From the IMG/VR virus record IMGVR_UViG_3300037042_002251: a stretch of DNA of 20,000 nucleotides; one strand, given 5' to 3'. The translations under genes were made by a program, and so were the position numbers. The first letter of the stretch is position 1; the number at the start of each line of letters is the position of its first letter. Origin of the DNA: an uncultured virus (IMG/VR IMGVR_UViG_3300037042_002251) (lineage: Duplodnaviria; Heunggongvirae; Uroviricota; Caudoviricetes). This document shows, piece after piece, positions 3,903 to 19,928 of the stretch. The notes under the pieces were generated by a model. The model saw only the letters and a program-made list of their open reading frames with translations. It was not told the origin of the DNA and did not search any database.

Positions 3903-4339
3903 CTACTCCGTGTCCCATGTGTGACGGCAAGTGCTGTCGCACGGAGATTCACCGCATCCCCACGTCCCACTCGGGGGACAACTGCCATGTGTGCCCCGGG
4001 TGTCGGAACGGCACCGCTCCGGCAATCGACTTCAAGAGGATGAAGGCGATGTTCAACGAAGCGGACACCCTCCTCACGGAGATTGGGTACGCACTCGAAG
4101 GAAAGGAAGTTCCCAAGGGTAAGGACGAACTCCTCGACCGGGTCATTGAACTCCGCGACGCTCGACGCCTCGACAACGAGGACCTCGCCCGCTCATTCGA
4201 CATGGGCTGGGACGCATCAACCGCCGCCGTGGTGGCGTGGCTGCGGGGGCAGGCCGAGAGCACGAACTTCCGCCCGCGGAAGTGCCCGCTCGCAGACGCC
4301 ATCGAACGTGGCGACCACATGAAGGGGAACAAGCGATGA
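3899..4339 (+). CDS. Cys-rich zinc-finger-like modular protein, 146 aa
   Basis: CPMCDGKCC...HVCPGCRNG; C-terminal AAVVAWLR...ADAIERGDH; RBS GGAG. Confidence 0.75.
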   Translation: MTTPCPMCDGKCCRTEIHRIPTSHSGDNCHVCPGCRNGTAPAIDFKRMKAMFNEADTLLTEIGYALEGKEVPKGKDELLDRVIELRDARRLDNEDLARSFDMGWDASTAAVVAWLRGQAESTNFRPRKCPLADAIERGDHMKGNKR

Positions 4340-8579: not shown

Positions 8580-8989
8580 GGGGGTGGGTCGGAGGAGGGC
8601 TCCTGTGCGAGTGGCTCTCCAAGCCCGATGAGCGCACGTTCGCCCTGCCTGTTGTGGACAACAACTTCACGTACGCCTCGCTCACGCTCGCACGCCTTCA
8701 CGAGAGCCACGAGACCGTCACGTTGGTCTCTCGCAGCCCGGAGGTGGCGTACAAGATGCCCGAGGATGGCGTCGTTGAGACCATCCACGGTCGGTGGCCC
8801 GCTCCGTTCGACAGCCTCGCCGCCCTTGCTCGCGGTGAGGTGAGCGGAGTGTCGAGGGGTCGGCTCCTCTACAACGCGTACTGGCACGCGCTGTCCCATT
8901 CTCCCGCACTTCGACGCTGGGTCGCGGAGCAGTATCCGGACTACTGGAAGTCCCTCGTCCTTTCGTTTCCTGCTATGGGAGCAGAATGA
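8576..8989 (+). CDS. Hypothetical protein, 137 aa
   Basis: ATGA overlaps at both ends; coupled to the sirtuin gene. Confidence 0.65.
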   Translation: MRGWVGGGLLCEWLSKPDERTFALPVVDNNFTYASLTLARLHESHETVTLVSRSPEVAYKMPEDGVVETIHGRWPAPFDSLAALARGEVSGVSRGRLLYNAYWHALSHSPALRRWVAEQYPDYWKSLVLSFPAMGAE

Positions 8990-9786
8990 ACGCAGCCCAA
9001 CGGGCCTTCCGCGATGCGGAGGTCGTCATCGTGACCACAGGAGCCGGGATGGGCGTGGACTCGGGGCTACCCGACTTCCGGGGCCCCGAGGGCTTCTGGC
9101 GGGCGTACCCGGCTCTCCGTGACCTCGACTTGTCGTTCGAGGAGATTGCGACGCCAATGTGGTTCGAGCGTGACCCGCGCCTCGCGTGGGGGTTCTACGG
9201 TCACCGGCTCAACCTCTACCGTCAGACGCGCCCGCACGCGGGGTACACGATGCTCCAAGACGGCATCGGGAGCCGTCCACACTTCGCGCTCACGACCAAC
9301 GTGGATGGTGCGCTCCAGAAGTCCGGGTGGCCTCCGTTCCATGTCTACGAGATGCACGGTCGCATCAACACGTTTCAATGCACGGTCTGCGATTACGCTC
9401 CGTGGGACGGCAGCCACGTCAACATCAAGGTCAGCAGCAAACTGCGCCTCGTCGGCAAACTGCCGACCTGTCCGGAGTGTGGCTCCGTGGCCCGACCAAA
9501 CATTATGATGTTCGATGACCCCTACTTTGACCCGACTGTGAACCAGCAACAGTCCTCGCGCTACCGCACGTGGATGAACCGGCACCGCTCGAACATGCGT
9601 GGCGTCGTGGTCGTAGAGATTGGGGCAGGAAAGGCCATCCCGACGCTCCGGCGCATGGGTGGGATGCTGGAAGAGGACGGCGCGACCCTCATTCGCATCA
9701 ACCTCCGGGAGGCCGAAGGGTCGCCCCGTACGATTTCGGTCCCGATGACCGGACTTCAGGGCATACGTATGTTGACGGAGCCGTAG
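8986..9786 (+). CDS. cobB: Sir2/CobB-family NAD+-dependent deacylase (sirtuin), 266 aa
   Basis: GAGMGVDSGLPDFRG, TTNVDG, catalytic HG, Zn-binding CTVC and CPEC, RPNIMMFDD, EIGAG, RINL motifs. Confidence 0.93.
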   Translation: MNAAQRAFRDAEVVIVTTGAGMGVDSGLPDFRGPEGFWRAYPALRDLDLSFEEIATPMWFERDPRLAWGFYGHRLNLYRQTRPHAGYTMLQDGIGSRPHFALTTNVDGALQKSGWPPFHVYEMHGRINTFQCTVCDYAPWDGSHVNIKVSSKLRLVGKLPTCPECGSVARPNIMMFDDPYFDPTVNQQQSSRYRTWMNRHRSNMRGVVVVEIGAGKAIPTLRRMGGMLEEDGATLIRINLREAEGSPRTISVPMTGLQGIRMLTEP

Positions 9787-10535: not shown

Positions 10536-13247
10536 ATGAGCGTAGACCCTCGACACCTCGGCGCGAACTGCGATGCCTGCCCACTCAAGGACTGCGGTCC
10601 GCCTGTCATGCCGGAGGACAACCCGGGGGCTCGGTTCGCCGTCGTGTCGGACTGTGCCTCGGACCATGAGCAACGCGAGGGGAGGCCCGTCGTGGGCCCC
10701 GCAGGGAGCCTGTTCACGCAGATGATGTCCTCTGCGGGCGCGAAGCGTAAGGACGTGCATTGGAACATGGTCGCTCTGTGCCGCCCGCCCGACAACGACA
10801 TGGGTCGTCTCGTGGAGCGCATCCGAAAGGCCAATCAGAAGGTCACGAAGGAGAACGCGGAGCGCAAGAAGGTGGGGCTCGATGCCCTGCCTCTTGAGTT
10901 GACCCCTGCGGAGTGCTGCGCGCCTCGTCTGTGGCGTGACCTCTCGAAGTTCGAGAACTTCATCGCGGTGGGCAGCATGGCGACCCGTGTGCTCGTCCAC
11001 GCGACGGCCAGCGTAATGAGCATCCGAGGGGCCCCTACGGAGGTGGACAAGTTCGGGCGGACCATCAAGGTCATGCCCGTCCTGCATCCCTCGTTCGTCA
11101 TTCGCGCCCAGCGGTGGCGGCACGTCCTTCAGAACGACATGAACCGTGCGGTGCGCTGGTTCCGTGGGGCGATGAAGTGGAAGCCCCCGGAGATTCTGTA
11201 CCACCCGGACGCCTACACCCTTCGCAAGTTCCTCGCGGACCCGAACGTGCCGTACTGGACGTACGACGTGGAGACCGACGGCATCGAGAGCCTCACGGCA
11301 AACCTCCGCTGCATTGGCATCGGGACGCCCGAGAAGGTCGTCATCGTCGGCTACGCGCCCATCAAGGAGGGCGACCCGCCGTTCTACACGAACGCCGAGC
11401 AGCACGCCGTGACGGAGGTCCTCAAGGAGTTCTTCGCGGACCCGAAGCGGCTCAAGGCCGGGCACAACGCGGGCGTGTACGACAAGTTGGTCATTGAGAA
11501 CCACCTCGGGGTCACTCCGACCCCCATCCTCGACACCATCCTGCTCCACCGTCTCGTAGAGGCGGAGTTGCCCCACAACCTCGGGTTCGTTGGTAGTATG
11601 TATACTGACGCGCCATCATGGAAAACTGATAGAGAGGGACGCAAACTAGCCTATGGCTCGGAGACGGACCACGAACTGCACGAGTACTGCGCCTACGACG
11701 TTGCGGTGACCGCTGCGGTCGTGCCGCAGTTGTTCGAGCAGACGCGCCTCCGCGAGCAGGACCACATCATCCAGAGCGACCATGCCATTCAGGTGGTGTG
11801 TGCGGAGATGCACAAGGTCGGCATGTTCGTGGACCAAGAGGTGCGGGGTGAGTGGGAGAAGAAACTGGTGGGGCTCGTCGAGAAGCACAAGACGGCTCTC
11901 CGGGAAATCTCGGGAATGGAGAGGTTGAACCCGGGCTCCACGTTCCAACTCCGTGACCTCCTGTTCGAGAAGTGGCGTCTGGAGCCTCCCGTCGAGGACG
12001 AGGTGCGCTTCACGACCTCGGGTGACCCGTCCACGAGTGACGAGGTTCTCCGGGCGTGCCTGACCATCAAGGGCCTCGATGAGGTTCAGCGTGGGGCCAT
12101 TCAGCACCTCCGGTACTTCCGCAAGGCGCAGAAGTTGCTCGGCACCTACGTCGTCAAACTCCGCTACAACACCGACCTTGCCGAAGAGGGCTGGGACGAC
12201 GACGAGGAAGCGTCGGAGCGTGAGAGCCGTCAGATGTACGGTGACGAGAAGCGGGGCATCGTGGACCCCCGCACGGGACGGATGCACCCCGGGTACAACC
12301 CGCACGTGGCCGTCACGGGACGCCTCTCCAGCAGCAAGCCCATCAACGCCCAGAACTTCCCGGCCAAACTCCGCAACATGGTCAAGGCGCAGCCGGGGCA
12401 TGTCCTCGTCGGGGCGGACGCCGACCAGTTGGAACTCCGCATCGCGGCGTCGCGGTGGGAGAGCAAACTGTACCTCGACGCTCTGGCTGCCGGAGCCGAC
12501 CCTCACGCCTCGACTGCCCTCACCGTGTTCGACGAGCGGTTCAAGACTGCCGAGGGCTACCCCGGAGGTCATTGGGACGGACGGCTCTTCATCCCGAACG
12601 GCGAGGGCAAGTGGGGCGGGGCTGCCAAGAACCTCCGCAACATCGCCAAGGGCGTGCAGTACTCGTCGCAGTATTGGGCCGAGGTCGAGACGGTTCACCG
12701 CGTCATCGCACAGACGGAGGTAGACAACGGGGATGGCACGACCACGCTGCCCTACCTCAACATCACGCTCCGCGAAGTCCGGATGATGCACAACAAGTGG
12801 CTCGACGGTGCCAAGTTCGCGGCAGGATGGGAGCGCGAGATGGAGACCTACCGCAACCACGGCTTCATCGCGGAGCCCGTCATGGGCCGTCGCAGGGATT
12901 TTCTGGACGGAGAATCGCGAAACGAGATTGTGAACTTCCCGATTCAGGCCAGCGGTGCGTCCCTGATGAACATCGCCCTGCTTCGGGTGGCGGAGCAAAT
13001 CCCGCTGCACAAGTGGGGAGCGGGAACCGGCATCATCAATCAATGCCACGACGCCATCGTGGTCGAGTGCCCGGCGGACGGGTGCGAGTTCGACCCGGAG
13101 ACGAAGAAGTGGAAGGTGCCGAAGGGCTCCATCCCGTGGCAGGTCAAGCACATCATCGAGGAGGCCATGAACCTTCAGCACAAGGGCCTTCCCAACGTCA
13201 AGTTCACCGCAACTGCGGAGATTGGTCTCCGCTGGAACGAGGTCTAG
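10536..13247 (+). CDS. polA: Phage family A DNA polymerase with N-terminal family-4 uracil-DNA-glycosylase-like domain and 3'-5' exonuclease, 903 aa
   Basis: UDG-like: CDAC, GRPVVGPAG, ALCRPPDN, CC, HPSFVIR. Exo I YDVETD, Exo II GHNAGVYD, Exo III YCAYD. Pol: TGRLSSSKPINAQN, motif A DADQLELR, motif B RNIAKGVQYSSQY, NFPIQASGA, motif C CHDA. Confidence 0.95.
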   Translation: MSVDPRHLGANCDACPLKDCGPPVMPEDNPGARFAVVSDCASDHEQREGRPVVGPAGSLFTQMMSSAGAKRKDVHWNMVALCRPPDNDMGRLVERIRKANQKVTKENAERKKVGLDALPLELTPAECCAPRLWRDLSKFENFIAVGSMATRVLVHATASVMSIRGAPTEVDKFGRTIKVMPVLHPSFVIRAQRWRHVLQNDMNRAVRWFRGAMKWKPPEILYHPDAYTLRKFLADPNVPYWTYDVETDGIESLTANLRCIGIGTPEKVVIVGYAPIKEGDPPFYTNAEQHAVTEVLKEFFADPKRLKAGHNAGVYDKLVIENHLGVTPTPILDTILLHRLVEAELPHNLGFVGSMYTDAPSWKTDREGRKLAYGSETDHELHEYCAYDVAVTAAVVPQLFEQTRLREQDHIIQSDHAIQVVCAEMHKVGMFVDQEVRGEWEKKLVGLVEKHKTALREISGMERLNPGSTFQLRDLLFEKWRLEPPVEDEVRFTTSGDPSTSDEVLRACLTIKGLDEVQRGAIQHLRYFRKAQKLLGTYVVKLRYNTDLAEEGWDDDEEASERESRQMYGDEKRGIVDPRTGRMHPGYNPHVAVTGRLSSSKPINAQNFPAKLRNMVKAQPGHVLVGADADQLELRIAASRWESKLYLDALAAGADPHASTALTVFDERFKTAEGYPGGHWDGRLFIPNGEGKWGGAAKNLRNIAKGVQYSSQYWAEVETVHRVIAQTEVDNGDGTTTLPYLNITLREVRMMHNKWLDGAKFAAGWEREMETYRNHGFIAEPVMGRRRDFLDGESRNEIVNFPIQASGASLMNIALLRVAEQIPLHKWGAGTGIINQCHDAIVVECPADGCEFDPETKKWKVPKGSIPWQVKHIIEEAMNLQHKGLPNVKFTATAEIGLRWNEV

Positions 13248-14735: not shown

Positions 14736-16421
14736 ATGCACGTCACGCATGTGGAAGGAACGGTCAAGGGAACGGTCAACGCGACGCTCGGACGACTGAC
14801 GGTCATCGTCGGTCCCAACGGGAGCGGCAAGAGCCGCCTCGTCAACACGATGGAACTCGCCCTCATGGGCTTCGCCTCCGACGTTGTGGGACGTGCCGAG
14901 ATGCGGAAGGAGAGCGACCTCGTGGCGCTCGCTTCCGGAGATGACCTCACGGCCAAGGCCACGTTGGAGGACGGTCGCGTCTCGATGTGGTCTACGAAGA
15001 AGACCAAGACCGGAGCGAAGAAGGCTGACCATGTGAAGGCCATCAACGCACAGTTCCCGGTCTCGGACGTTCGTGCGGCCCTGACGGGGAGCGTCGAGAC
15101 GGCCCGGAAGTGGCTGCTTCAGCGCGTCTCCTCCGGTGTGGCTCGGAAGGACGTGACGACCCACCTCACCTCGGACAGCGCGGAGCGGTACGAGAGGAAG
15201 GCCAAGCAGATGGCTGCGACGGACGAGGTGACGGTCCTCGTGACGCTGCTGGAGGGGGAGAAGTCCTCCATCCGGAGCAAGAAGATGGAGATGACCTCGC
15301 TTGAGGCGAGCCTCTCGCTCCTCGCGGGCAACCTCGGAGTGGACCCCACCGACGCCCAGTTGTCGATGGCGAAGCAGGAGGCGGAGGCTGCGCTGAAGAA
15401 CTACCGTGAGGTGGTCGCCCAGCACGCACAGCGTCAGGGCCCCGACCTCGTCGCTCTCCGGGAACAGGCCGAGCGCCTGATTGGAGCGTTCAACGACGCT
15501 CTGGCGTCCTTGCAGGAGGTCCAGCAGGTCATTCCGCAGTTTGGCCCTGCTCCCGGGGAAACGGACGTGAAGGTGGCCGACCTCCGCATGAAGGTCGCGG
15601 ACTTGGCCCACATCCAGACCGAGTTCGGGTCCACCGCGTGCCTCGTGTGCGAGAGCCCCGGACCGTTCGACTTCGGGGCACGTCGAGACTTCATGCACTC
15701 CGCAAACAAGGCCATGATGGAGCGGAAGCAGGTCTACGACATCCTCAATCACCGCACGTCCCGCCACGACGAAGCCCTCAAGGCCGCACAGGACGCCATC
15801 GGTCGCTTCAACCACGCGCAGACCCTCGCTGCGGAGGACACCACGTTCCTCCCGTCCGTCGAGGAGGCCGAGGCTCTGATGCAACGGGCGAACGAGAACC
15901 TCCGCAAGGTCGAGGATGCCCATGAGGGCCACAAGCGGGTTCGCTCGCTCCGGGAGCAGGAGCGCACGCTGAAGCGTGACATCCGGGATGCCGAGGAACT
16001 CGTCGAGGGCTTGCAGGAGGCTCTCGGCAGCCTTCTCCGCTCTGCCCGCGAGGAGTTCGTGAAGAAGGTGCAGTCCTTCCTTCCCACGGAGGACCAGTTC
16101 GACCTCGTGCTGAACGAGGGCGACAAGGAGGTCTGCCGCTTTGGGTTCATCCGTGACGGCAACCTTCACACCGCCCTGTCCGGTGCGGAGTGGGCCCGCC
16201 TCACGCTGGCTCTGGCATGTGCTTCGACCAAGCCGGAGAAGGACAGCCTCATCGTGTTCGTCCCGGAGGAGCGTGCGTTCGACCCCGAGACGCTGCGTGC
16301 CGTGCTGATTGCCCTCACCAACGCTCCGGGGCAGGTCATCATCACGACCCCCGTGAAGCCTTCCGGCAAGTTGCCGAAGGGTTGGACGCTCGTGGAAACG
16401 CAGCACGCCGTCTCGAACTAG
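14736..16421 (+). CDS. SbcC/Rad50-like (SMC/ABC superfamily) coiled-coil ATPase, 561 aa
   Basis: Walker A GPNGSGKS (14811-14834), coiled coils, central CLVC zinc-hook-like motif (15639-15650), signature LSGAE (16176-16190); RBS AAGGAG. Confidence 0.85.
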   Translation: MHVTHVEGTVKGTVNATLGRLTVIVGPNGSGKSRLVNTMELALMGFASDVVGRAEMRKESDLVALASGDDLTAKATLEDGRVSMWSTKKTKTGAKKADHVKAINAQFPVSDVRAALTGSVETARKWLLQRVSSGVARKDVTTHLTSDSAERYERKAKQMAATDEVTVLVTLLEGEKSSIRSKKMEMTSLEASLSLLAGNLGVDPTDAQLSMAKQEAEAALKNYREVVAQHAQRQGPDLVALREQAERLIGAFNDALASLQEVQQVIPQFGPAPGETDVKVADLRMKVADLAHIQTEFGSTACLVCESPGPFDFGARRDFMHSANKAMMERKQVYDILNHRTSRHDEALKAAQDAIGRFNHAQTLAAEDTTFLPSVEEAEALMQRANENLRKVEDAHEGHKRVRSLREQERTLKRDIRDAEELVEGLQEALGSLLRSAREEFVKKVQSFLPTEDQFDLVLNEGDKEVCRFGFIRDGNLHTALSGAEWARLTLALACASTKPEKDSLIVFVPEERAFDPETLRAVLIALTNAPGQVIITTPVKPSGKLPKGWTLVETQHAVSN

Positions 16422-17333: not shown

Positions 17334-17807
17334 TCAGCGACTAACACCCCGGAGTGCTGCGACAAGCACGGTCGCCCCGGCAATCGTGGCAAGTACCTTC
17401 GTGGTCGTCTTGTCGGTGGAGGACTTGTCCATGATGTACGCCGCTACGGCGGTTGGAATGAGCGCGGAGATGCCGCCCACGGCATAGCCGATGGCAGGAG
17501 ACACGCCCTGCGAGAGACCTGCGATGGTGTTCGTCGCGGTCACACCCGCAACAGCACCCATGACCGGACCCCACCCCTTCGGGACTTTGATGCGCTCGGA
17601 GAGCCACTCGTCGAGGGCAAAGCCTGTCAGCGTCGTCGCGACGATGACTGCCCCGGAGTAGTGCCCAAACTTGAGGGCCTGCCCAAACGTCGGAGCGGCA
17701 CTTGCCGCGCCGTACTGTGAGGTCACAGCGGGAGCCGCGTAGGCAATCTTGTAGACCTCCGGCCCTGCCGCCGAAAGCGCCGCCCTGACGATGGGGTTGT
17801 TGAGCAT
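17334..17807 (-). CDS. Multi-pass membrane protein, 157 aa
   Basis: Three to four Gly/Ala-rich hydrophobic segments; RBS GAGG before ATG 17807. Confidence 0.75.
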   Translation of the reverse strand: MLNNPIVRAALSAAGPEVYKIAYAAPAVTSQYGAASAAPTFGQALKFGHYSGAVIVATTLTGFALDEWLSERIKVPKGWGPVMGAVAGVTATNTIAGLSQGVSPAIGYAVGGISALIPTAVAAYIMDKSSTDKTTTKVLATIAGATVLVAALRGVSR

Positions 17808-17815
17808 CGGAGCCT

Positions 17816-18349
17816 CTACTTCTTGAACATGAAGTAGCCGATGCCGATACCGAGGGCGATGCCCACGGCGGTACCGATGCCCGTCCACTTGCCGTTGAAG
17901 TCCTCGAAGCCCTCGTAGGTCGTGCCCGTGGGCACGTTCGTGTAGACGGTGGGCCCACGGAACCACGAACGGCCCGGCTCCGTGCCCGGGTAGATGGGAC
18001 CGGGGAGGTTGCCCGGAATGTAGGCCACAGGCTCCAGCGAATCACGCGGAGCGGGACGGTCCAGACCCCCGATGGGGTCCGCAACGGGGCGGACGGCAGG
18101 AGAGTACCCCTGAGCGGTGATGCCCGCGTAGGTGGGGAGAATGGTTCCGTTGCGGAGGTCGGTGGACTGCATGGCGGCTGCCTCGCGAGAGTTGTAGTTC
18201 GGGGGGAGGTCGGAGTAGATGGCGGGACCCCTGACCCACCCCGGGCCGGGAAAGGGCAGAGCAGATGAAGCACGGTACGGCTGGAACGCCTCGGTCTTGA
18301 TGTACGGCATGAACGGCTCGGAGCCGATGCCAAAGTAGTCGTGCCTCAT
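17816..18349 (-). CDS. Pro/Gly-rich protein with C-terminal transmembrane anchor, 177 aa
   Basis: ATGA overlap with the recombinase stop; ends GIGTAVGIALGIGIGYFMFKK; internal WxRGPxxY repeat. Confidence 0.75.
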   Translation of the reverse strand: MRHDYFGIGSEPFMPYIKTEAFQPYRASSALPFPGPGWVRGPAIYSDLPPNYNSREAAAMQSTDLRNGTILPTYAGITAQGYSPAVRPVADPIGGLDRPAPRDSLEPVAYIPGNLPGPIYPGTEPGRSWFRGPTVYTNVPTGTTYEGFEDFNGKWTGIGTAVGIALGIGIGYFMFKK

Positions 18350-19131
18350 GCTGACTTCTCCACGGCTTCCTGAAGCATCCCCGCGTCCGGGTGGAGGTAT
18401 CGGGAAGTAGTCTGAATGTTCTTGTGGCCGAGAAGGGCCTGCACGGAGCGGAGGTCGGCACCTTTCCGCAGCAGGGTCGTAGCGAACGTGTGCCGCATCG
18501 TGTGGGGCGTCATCTCGCCCAACTCCGGGTACTTCGACCGCATCGAGCGAACGACCTTCCGGACCGCAGCGGGCGTGATGGCAGACCCGGAGTAGCCTTC
18601 GAACAGCCAACTGTCCGGTTGATGGGTCTCCATGTAGTCCTTGAGGGTCTTGGTGGCAGCGGAGTTGAGCGGCACGAACCGCTCCTCGTCACGCTTCCCT
18701 CGGAACAGGAGGCCCAGCACGCCGCCCCGCTTCGTCACATTGTCCACGCGGAGACCACAAATCTCGCTGATGCGGAGACCGGTACGGGGCAGGAGAAGCA
18801 GGATGGTACGGCAGGGGTCCGCCTGCTCGTCCGACACCATGTAGTAGTACGCCAACTGCGACGGAGTGAGCGCCTCACGGAGACCAGAAGGACGGCCCTT
18901 CGCCTTCGGAAGGAGGGCTGCAATCTCATCCTCGGAGTATCCCTCCGACAGCAAGAAGTGTTTGACCGCAGCCCGAAGGGGAAGGACCGTCCCAATGGGT
19001 GTCCGCGACGTGAGCCGGTCATGGAGCCACTTCACAGGGTCGCGTTTGCCAATGCTCTCGACCACCGTGACGTACTTCGTACGGGTGTTCGGAGAGAGGC
19101 CCTGCGCCTTGAGGTGGCTGTCCATGTTCAT
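18346..19131 (-). CDS. XerC/XerD-like tyrosine recombinase, 261 aa
   Basis: TGLRISE (R), GKRDEER (K), HTMRHTFAT (HxxR), LLGH (H), TSRY (Y nucleophile); ATGA overlap with the upstream gene. Confidence 0.93.
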   Translation of the reverse strand: MNMDSHLKAQGLSPNTRTKYVTVVESIGKRDPVKWLHDRLTSRTPIGTVLPLRAAVKHFLLSEGYSEDEIAALLPKAKGRPSGLREALTPSQLAYYYMVSDEQADPCRTILLLLPRTGLRISEICGLRVDNVTKRGGVLGLLFRGKRDEERFVPLNSAATKTLKDYMETHQPDSWLFEGYSGSAITPAAVRKVVRSMRSKYPELGEMTPHTMRHTFATTLLRKGADLRSVQALLGHKNIQTTSRYLHPDAGMLQEAVEKSA

Positions 19132-19529
19132 GCTTCGGTTCCCGCCCACGAGAGGGGGTTGTACCACCGGAAGTCGGCCTCACGCTGGGCCTGTGCCGCC
19201 TCCGCAGACTTCTGCTGCATCTTCGCGTCGATGGGGGCCAGAACGTAGTACTGCAACGCCCACCCGAGCACACCTCCCATCAGGGTCACGGCACCGGTCA
19301 TGGTGTCGTCCAACTTCGCCACACGGGCTCCGAGGAACGCACTACCCGCCCCGAAGAGCGTGGGCGCGGAGAGCAGGGCCCCAACCTTCGGAGAGTTCTC
19401 GACGTACTTCTTCGCGTAGATGAGCCCACCGATGATGACCACGCCCCCGAGGATGTACGGAGTGTACGGCAGGACGGCCATCACGGCGGGCGCGACGTTC
19501 TTGCGGTACGGAACGACCTTCTTGGACAT
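19128..19529 (-). CDS. Small multi-pass membrane protein, 133 aa
   Basis: Three hydrophobic segments (YILGGVVIIGGLIYA; LLSAPTLFGAGSAFLGA; GAVTLMGGVLGWALQYYVLA). Confidence 0.75.
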   Translation of the reverse strand: MSKKVVPYRKNVAPAVMAVLPYTPYILGGVVIIGGLIYAKKYVENSPKVGALLSAPTLFGAGSAFLGARVAKLDDTMTGAVTLMGGVLGWALQYYVLAPIDAKMQQKSAEAAQAQREADFRWYNPLSWAGTEA

Positions 19530-19535
19530 GGGAGC

Positions 19536-19928
19536 CTACTGGGGAAGGAAGGAGGGACGAGGACAGACGCCATGCTCCGTGCTCTGCACGGTGTCCCGGT
19601 CGTAGAGGATGGCTTTGCCGAACACACGCTCTGCCATGTCATCGGCGTCCCGCTCCGAGTGGTCGAGACGCCCGAAGTAGAACAGCATGGCGTGCCCGAG
19701 TTCGTGCGCCAGAACGCCCTCGATGCGGTGGTTGGCAGACTTCACCATCTTCGGAGCCACCACGATGATGAGGCCATCGGAGCAGTACGCGAAGTTGCGC
19801 GCCTCGGGAAACTCCGTCCGGTTCCCGATGTAGAGCCGGGGCCGAAACGACGAACCCACCGTACTCCGAGCCTGCTTGGACAGGCGGTCGAAGATGACGT
19901 GGACACGAGAGGACGAGGAAGGGGTCAC
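19536..19928 (-). CDS. Small zincin-like HExxH metallopeptidase-fold protein, 130 aa
   Basis: VLAHELGHA followed by HSERDADDMA (ExxAD third-ligand pattern of ImmA/IrrE/M48-like zincins). Confidence 0.75.
   Translation of the reverse strand: MTPSSSSRVHVIFDRLSKQARSTVGSSFRPRLYIGNRTEFPEARNFAYCSDGLIIVVAPKMVKSANHRIEGVLAHELGHAMLFYFGRLDHSERDADDMAERVFGKAILYDRDTVQSTEHGVCPRPSFLPQ

Follow-up and report, generated by a model that had tools for sequence, protein, structure and literature searches.

A synonymously recoded tract centred on an empty intein insertion site in the DNA polymerase gene of an uncultured phage

The window analysed here, a 20,000-nucleotide stretch of DNA from an uncultured virus, contains a DNA polymerase gene in which 22 consecutive codons are rewritten towards A/T endings at K363|T364, the point where relatives of the polymerase carry an intein. 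The patch is real, and its place is explained. Judging from comparison of the sequences, it is very probably linked to the intein insertion site. As for its origin, we lean slightly towards a homing-resistant empty intein allele that would have been silently rewritten in conflict with the endonuclease of the intein. The features involved are the following:

10536..13247, plus strand: gene for a UDG / 3'-5' exonuclease / family A DNA polymerase fusion of 903 aa, intact and intein-free
11585..11654, plus strand: synonymously recoded tract, with A/T-ending codons at 11589-11654 and the first departure from G/C alleles at 11585
11624..11625, plus strand: empty intein insertion site K363|T364, with inserts in homologues and the splicing +1 Thr retained
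11625..11654, plus strand: right half of the patch, which a natural allele (run X3) has without the left half
11687..11688, plus strand: another intein site left empty, Y384|C385, within the ExoIII motif, with an insert in 5 of 120 homologues and unrecoded in the window
11595..11606, no strand assigned: palindrome with 5-bp arms, incidental, disrupted in the alleles of X3 and X7

The polymerase gene codes for three Pfam domains, UDG (aa 28-193), DNA_pol_A_exo1 (aa 237-399) and DNA_pol_A (aa 441-669), is assigned to PHROG 17 and appears free of inserts in an alignment with 120 homologues. The closest annotated phage polymerase (Virus Rctr197k) is only 26.5% identical, useless for codon comparison, and a single-protein scan confirmed no relatives in viral contigs. 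Contigs with homologues of the polymerase reach 180 kb and, together with the neighbours of the gene, point to a large phage. These neighbours include a Sir2-family gene (8986-9786), an SbcC/SMC-like ATPase (14736-16421) and a tyrosine integrase (18346-19167), the last one surrounded on the minus strand (17334-19928) by a cluster of small hydrophobic ORFs rich in Ala and Gly, two of which were scanned without a PHROG match. Most of the remaining ORFs of the window, many of them small, have no family match in Pfam or PHROGs.

The patch comprises 66 bases (codons 352-373) with sharp edges and an intact frame, just as an earlier note made from the letters alone had described it. Fifteen of its 20 degenerate codons end in A or T, compared with 121 of 839 (0.14) in the rest of the gene, and the rare codons to which the note drew attention are indeed rare, AGA, CTA and TCA occurring once each in the whole gene and CCA twice. 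Outside the patch, non-overlapping 20-codon windows of the gene have a maximum of 8 A/T-ending codons, and when codons were shuffled synonymously within amino-acid classes, the gene-wide maximum reached 15 in none of 100,000 shuffles and 14 in two. The patch is also the top A/T-ending stretch among the 21 ORFs of the window that were scanned, the runner-up having 11 of 20. All 275 words sampled from the gene are present in two runs from two studies, either of which may be the source of the window, and run X3, from a third study, contains the right half of the patch. Faced with the shuffles and with the presence of these words in independent studies, an assembly artefact or ordinary variation of GC3, which the note had named as what might undo its observation, has a negligible probability. 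Run X5, a metatranscriptome made from the sample that also gave X2, contained 0.37 of the polymerase gene words, which may be DNA carry-over; word shares under 0.2 were not used for habitat.

The search gave 352 polymerase homologues, and the counts of inserts rest on the 120 of them that were listed and aligned. Nine of these 120 have an insert of 143-316 aa exactly at 363|364, so that the proposal to look for inteins at this point in relatives proved well founded; the patch spans 36 nt upstream (36-40 for the full tract) and 30 nt downstream of the site. Besides the inserts at 384|385 listed above, others were found at 310 (two homologues) and 593 (one), and a wider set of loci added sites near 605, 710 and 805. 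The UDG-PolA family thus has seven intein positions (about 310, 363, 384, 593, 605, 710 and 805), and single genes can have several inteins, three in locus L100 and two in L182.

In all nine protein copies the site-363 insert begins with Cys, ends with Asn and is followed by Thr (L100 has a +1 Ser), with Gly or Ala in place of His as the penultimate residue. The eight full-length copies all have two acidic LAGLIDADG-like motifs in which the Asp is kept. Sequence searches with the intein gave weak matches (Pfam E 0.03; none below 0.05 in the PDB), which were settled by a fold search: a model of the L182 intein, with a mean pLDDT of 68 and 80-96 in the endonuclease core, matched TliVMA (E 1e-10), PI-SceI (4e-9) and I-DmoI (2e-7) in Foldseek. 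The insert is therefore, by its predicted fold, a LAGLIDADG homing-endonuclease intein. Intein-free sisters with 97.5-99.6% identity exist for four of the nine intein-bearing exteins, and in distant hosts the inteins are more alike than the exteins (P0010 and P0115, 75% versus 57%), from which we infer that the site-363 intein is mobile. The pattern of its N-terminal junction had no matches in viral contigs.

Four states of the site are found among close relatives of the window: the full patch, its right half, G/C codons without the intein, and G/C codons with it. Four of 20 runs (X3, X6, X7 and X10) entered this comparison, made over 11150-12100, and the alleles of X3, X7 and X10, from different samples, come from one contig each across or at the site, at a depth of 4-6 (about 4 in X3 and X10); no close contig across the patch was found in X6. 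The X7 contig, of 1067 nt, crosses the site without a gap and is thus empty. It differs from the window at 41 positions in 780 nt, of which, counted at the listed variant positions (the X7 listing omits 11618, 11624, 11639 and 11654), at least 16 fall in 11585-11651 and no more than 25 in the remaining 713 aligned nt (Fisher p 3e-8). The 16 listed differences in the tract are all synonymous, which is the spike of synonymous divergence against a close relative that the earlier note had proposed to look for, and in 12 of them an A/T of the window corresponds to G/C. At least 14 of the 22 degenerate codons of the tract differ from X7, although at most 3.5% of other positions do, and the patch as such is missing from this 95%-identical relative. 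The divergent tract begins one codon pair earlier than the patch, at 11585. Six or more of the X7 differences lie within 15 nt of the insertion site, in what would be the target of the endonuclease, and one of these is at a first codon position. Transversions are not significantly raised in the patch (7 of 16 versus 6 of 25 outside, p 0.30); of the eight four-fold codons that changed, three are G-C swaps, as would be expected, in a weak argument, if any other base would do for escape.

A contig of X10 has 7 differences over 11634-11782, and its unaligned part translates to KVTVAAN, the C-terminal end of the intein in P0010 and P0125, followed by T364-D365-R366 in X7 codons, while a second X10 contig enters the left flank in G/C codons. 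Since X10 joins KVTVAAN to T364 and has a G/C left flank, a close relative carries the intein between G/C flanks. In the X3 contig (222 nt, record 10), positions 11603, 11606, 11612 and 11615 are in the G/C state and all eight listed positions in 11627-11651 in that of the window, with the switch falling inside a stretch of 12 nt that spans the insertion site. At all listed positions the four natural states share the same protein sequence. The synonymous spike in itself fits selection, hypermutation or import alike.

A survey of A/T patches covered 186 homologous loci and the window, of which 125 met the requirements of 380 or more mapped residues, coverage of the site region and 44% identity; merging at 97% reduced them to 87. 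Five of the 87 have an A/T-ending stretch with p<0.05, namely the window, L171, L182, L183 and L141. L182 has 17 of 20 A/T-ending codons (codons 695-715) over site 710, which is filled in L183, and L171 has 15 of 20 (codons 366-385) between sites 363 and 384. The stretch in L183 (10 of 20, codons 354-374, p 0.014) is within the noise of multiple testing, and that in L141 (p 0.016, background 0.43) is at no known intein site. Among 43 G/C-rich homologous genes besides the window, L182 and L171 are outliers (scores of 12.1 and 11.0, the next being 6.5), with patches that lie 4 and 8 codons away from a site, a distance with a chance of about 0.17 in each case. The best stretches lie within 10 codons of an intein site in 11 of the 43 genes versus 7 expected, a weak excess. 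A mean A/T excess is absent at four of the seven sites (310, 593, 605 and 805), and at site 363 there is a slight one across the 43 genes, in the top 4% of positions. The patches of different homologues have no codons or sequence in common. A/T recoding at intein sites is sporadic across the family, and the strong patches in two other homologues are likewise situated on empty intein sites.

The recoded letters could in principle have come from a low-GC relative by micro-recombination, an option raised in the earlier note. A search of 84 homologues for such a donor of the tract gave none, the best agreeing at 54 of 72 nt. At the protein level, each of the four patches is closer to G/C-rich relatives than to any A/T-rich one (21/21 versus 15/21 in L182, 26/28 versus 24/28 in L171, 19/21 versus 16/21 in L183 and 23/24 versus 21/24 in the window). 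Inteins were found in 8 of 49 loci with an AT3 below 0.35 and in 0 of 37 above it, some of the loci being partial, and no intein had an AT3 above 0.55; the inteins themselves are often somewhat A/T-richer than their hosts. Where site 363 is occupied, the flanks in X10, L137, L174 and L182 resemble their own backgrounds, with 3/11, 1/11 and 3/11 A/T-ending codons upstream in the last three. In L100, the upstream flank (4027-4059) has 8/11 in a sequence unlike the patch of the window, next to a mini-intein that is A/T-richer than its host (0.54 versus 0.32), and may possibly be a true co-conversion tract. The missing donor in this incomplete sample, the own-lineage amino acids and the ordinary occupied flanks favour a recoding that would have arisen within the lineage, rather than import from a low-GC phage, and make the micro-recombination option less likely.

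The earlier note had also proposed that a second code (an origin, a promoter, a protein site or a translational pause) is overlaid on the coding sequence. The rare codons exist, as does the small palindrome AGTAT-gt-ATACT at the position given for it, but its significance did not hold up, since such a palindrome appears in 1212 of 5000 A/T-weighted recodings (24%) and the gene contains 15. Scans of the patch gave no sigma-70-like promoter or terminator, no RNA folding signal (z-scores of 0.72, 1.52, 0.02 and -0.11) and no Rfam family, and the left 27 nt of the patch have no second copy in the window. With these scans giving no support, the patch absent from a 95%-identical relative and the patches of other homologues sharing no sequence, an overlaid regulatory code, be it an internal promoter, origin, protein site, RNA structure or pause, is very improbable.

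In the reading that we slightly prefer, that of a homing-resistant allele, the endonuclease of the intein would cut empty G/C alleles in mixed infections. Because the motif is too conserved for changes in the protein, only silent variants of the target would escape cutting or homing, among them first-position switches in Arg and Leu codons, and these would end mostly in A/T, since departure from the G/C consensus nearly forces such endings. Breaks at the site would be repaired from the resistant allele, carrying all or half of the tract into other backgrounds. In support of resistance we can cite the centring of the patch on the site, the presence and absence of the intein among near-identical polymerases, its occurrence in the lineage of the window itself, the relatives with G/C codons that have or lack it, the half-patch allele, and the strong patches on empty sites in two other homologues, where the amino acids are still those of the respective lineage. 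Nuclease escape had been among the options of the earlier note, and the centring on an intein site and the silent spike fit a homing endonuclease, one of the nucleases that it named; cleavage, resistance, the order of events and thus immunity itself we infer from comparing alleles. Against resistance, most empty alleles are unrecoded, and the 66-70 nt of the tract exceed the 14-40 bp given for homing targets in the accessible part of one study (PMC3159444). As the tract is wider than these targets, its ends require repair tracts in addition to selection on the target. In the same study, PI-SceI and PI-PspI acted on targets carrying 11 and 10 silent transitions at once, respectively, and cleaved them at least as well as the native ones, so wobble recoding need not protect. 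In favour of resistance, the tract of the window includes transversions and first-position changes, and for yeast WHO6 a report gives 8 of 24 synonymous changes in the target as leading to resistance (10.64898/2026.08.13.744650).

Several other explanations start from the same site. Error-prone repair of repeated endonuclease breaks might have left a neutral scar without any protection, in which only synonymous changes survived purifying selection and mutation was biased towards A/T, as it generally is in bacteria. We regard this as rather unlikely, even though it accounts for the width and centring of the tract, for the own-lineage amino acids and for the slight A/T excess at site 363 across the 43 genes. 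It is also compatible with endonucleases that tolerate silent changes (PMC3159444, in part), and mutagenic repair has been proposed for mobile introns of yeast mitochondria in the accessible text of 10.1101/092585. What it explains poorly is that so many degenerate codons changed relative to an allele that is nearly identical elsewhere, that the edges are sharp and the half-patch allele changed block-wise, and that most empty alleles show nothing, when a mutation gradient should be more even. Alternatively, an intein from an unsampled low-GC phage could have brought its flanks along and later been lost precisely or overwritten, a co-conversion scar that would leave a tract on both sides of the site, as is seen here. 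Exon co-conversion is established (10.1101/092585, as far as its available text goes), and the L100 flank and the A/T-richer composition of many inteins agree with it. The intein-bearing relative in X10, on the other hand, has G/C flanks on both sides, the occupied L137, L174 and L182 are poor in A/T-ending codons upstream, and the lack of a donor among 84 homologues, the G/C-type amino acids and the confinement of inteins to loci of low AT3 speak against it as well. Co-conversion is defined by a tract in the element-bearing alleles, and those of X10, L137, L174 and L182 lack it, so that we hold this origin to be unlikely.

Finally, the patch might reflect escape from, or immunity to, another nuclease, such as a free-standing homing endonuclease of this phage or a host CRISPR system. 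Any such enzyme would find a good target in a conserved motif, and the window is only 20 kb of the genome; within it, no nuclease family of this type was recognised among 10 ORFs compared with Pfam or 32 compared with PHROGs, most of the latter having no family match. None of the observations requires CRISPR escape. Moreover, such a nuclease predicts no centring on intein sites, either here or in the two other strong patches, and we consider it quite improbable.

Homing group I introns such as that of plant cox1 are accompanied by a short, foreign-looking tract of silent-site changes at the insertion point, which travels with the element. The window has a similar short silent-site tract at the insertion point, but here it is the empty allele that has the tract and the intein-bearing relatives that lack it. 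WHO/FBA1 of Torulaspora (10.64898/2026.08.13.744650, accessible part) is alike in its LAGLIDADG enzyme and essential host gene, and in natural alleles of the target whose differences are mainly at third positions, some of the synonymous changes conferring resistance. WHO elements, unlike the insert at site 363, are not inteins and must avoid self-cutting, and the selection signal described in that portion consists of amino-acid changes at a few codons, whereas the window has a saturating, purely synonymous tract of 22 codons in a phage. In the available text on yeast mitochondrial introns (Repar and Warnecke, 10.1101/092585), there is likewise a mostly synonymous excess beside homing sites that is not strictly tied to the presence of the element and for which no donor was found, and the same rival causes, mutagenic repair and co-conversion from outside, are considered. 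That excess is a SNP gradient over many strains for which this text does not propose protection, whereas in the window a single dense block of altered composition covers an empty intein site, and here we do propose it. Certain haloarchaeal mcm alleles (PMC10643990, in part) have empty intein sites that withstand invasion. They owe this to a +1 Pro, which prevents splicing although the site is still cut, whereas the window retains the +1 Thr. The inteins of actinobacteriophages (10.1101/2025.01.02.630785) have a similarly patchy distribution with many empty homologues, and the accessible part of that survey merely suggests target-site resistance as future work and describes no recoded site. In the literature that we found, mostly outside subscription journals and supplements, there is no description of A/T-recoded empty intein sites, and resistance at phage intein sites is a matter of speculation.

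This locus bears on the question of how empty alleles hold out against inteins that home actively, and contributes four natural alleles and the reciprocal pair of L182 and L183. One endonuclease family together with four target alleles makes a natural test set. Should the recoded allele prove resistant, hosts would escape an intein without altering the protein, which would be a natural model of gene-drive resistance and would contradict the view, as put in the available part of PMC3159444, that homing enzymes have closed the silent route by tolerance. If it does not, the patch gauges the mutagenic or recombinogenic effect of homing. Either way, local codon anomalies are a means of finding intein targets. 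As a tentative generalization, phages may answer inteins with purely synonymous anti-homing alleles, built within a lineage and spread by the intein's own breaks. The four natural states would then be steps in the build-up and spread of an anti-homing allele, like resistance alleles against gene drives, and a sharp A/T patch in a G/C-rich gene would point to an active intein target even if the intein itself is not visible.

There may possibly be a second, protein-level route to resistance at site 363, where the +1 residue is Ala, Gln or Gly in 8 of 87 homologues (among them L183, L054, L036, L039, L043 and L045), residues that should be incompatible with splicing. L183 combines such a non-nucleophile with its mild A/T patch. 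The intein at site 605 (5716 in L100 and near 841 in L154) apparently ends in Gln instead of Asn, and by eye its termini look like those of the site-363 intein. The insert at site 710, seen in a single locus (about 3375-4625 in L183), seemingly starts with Ser and not Cys.
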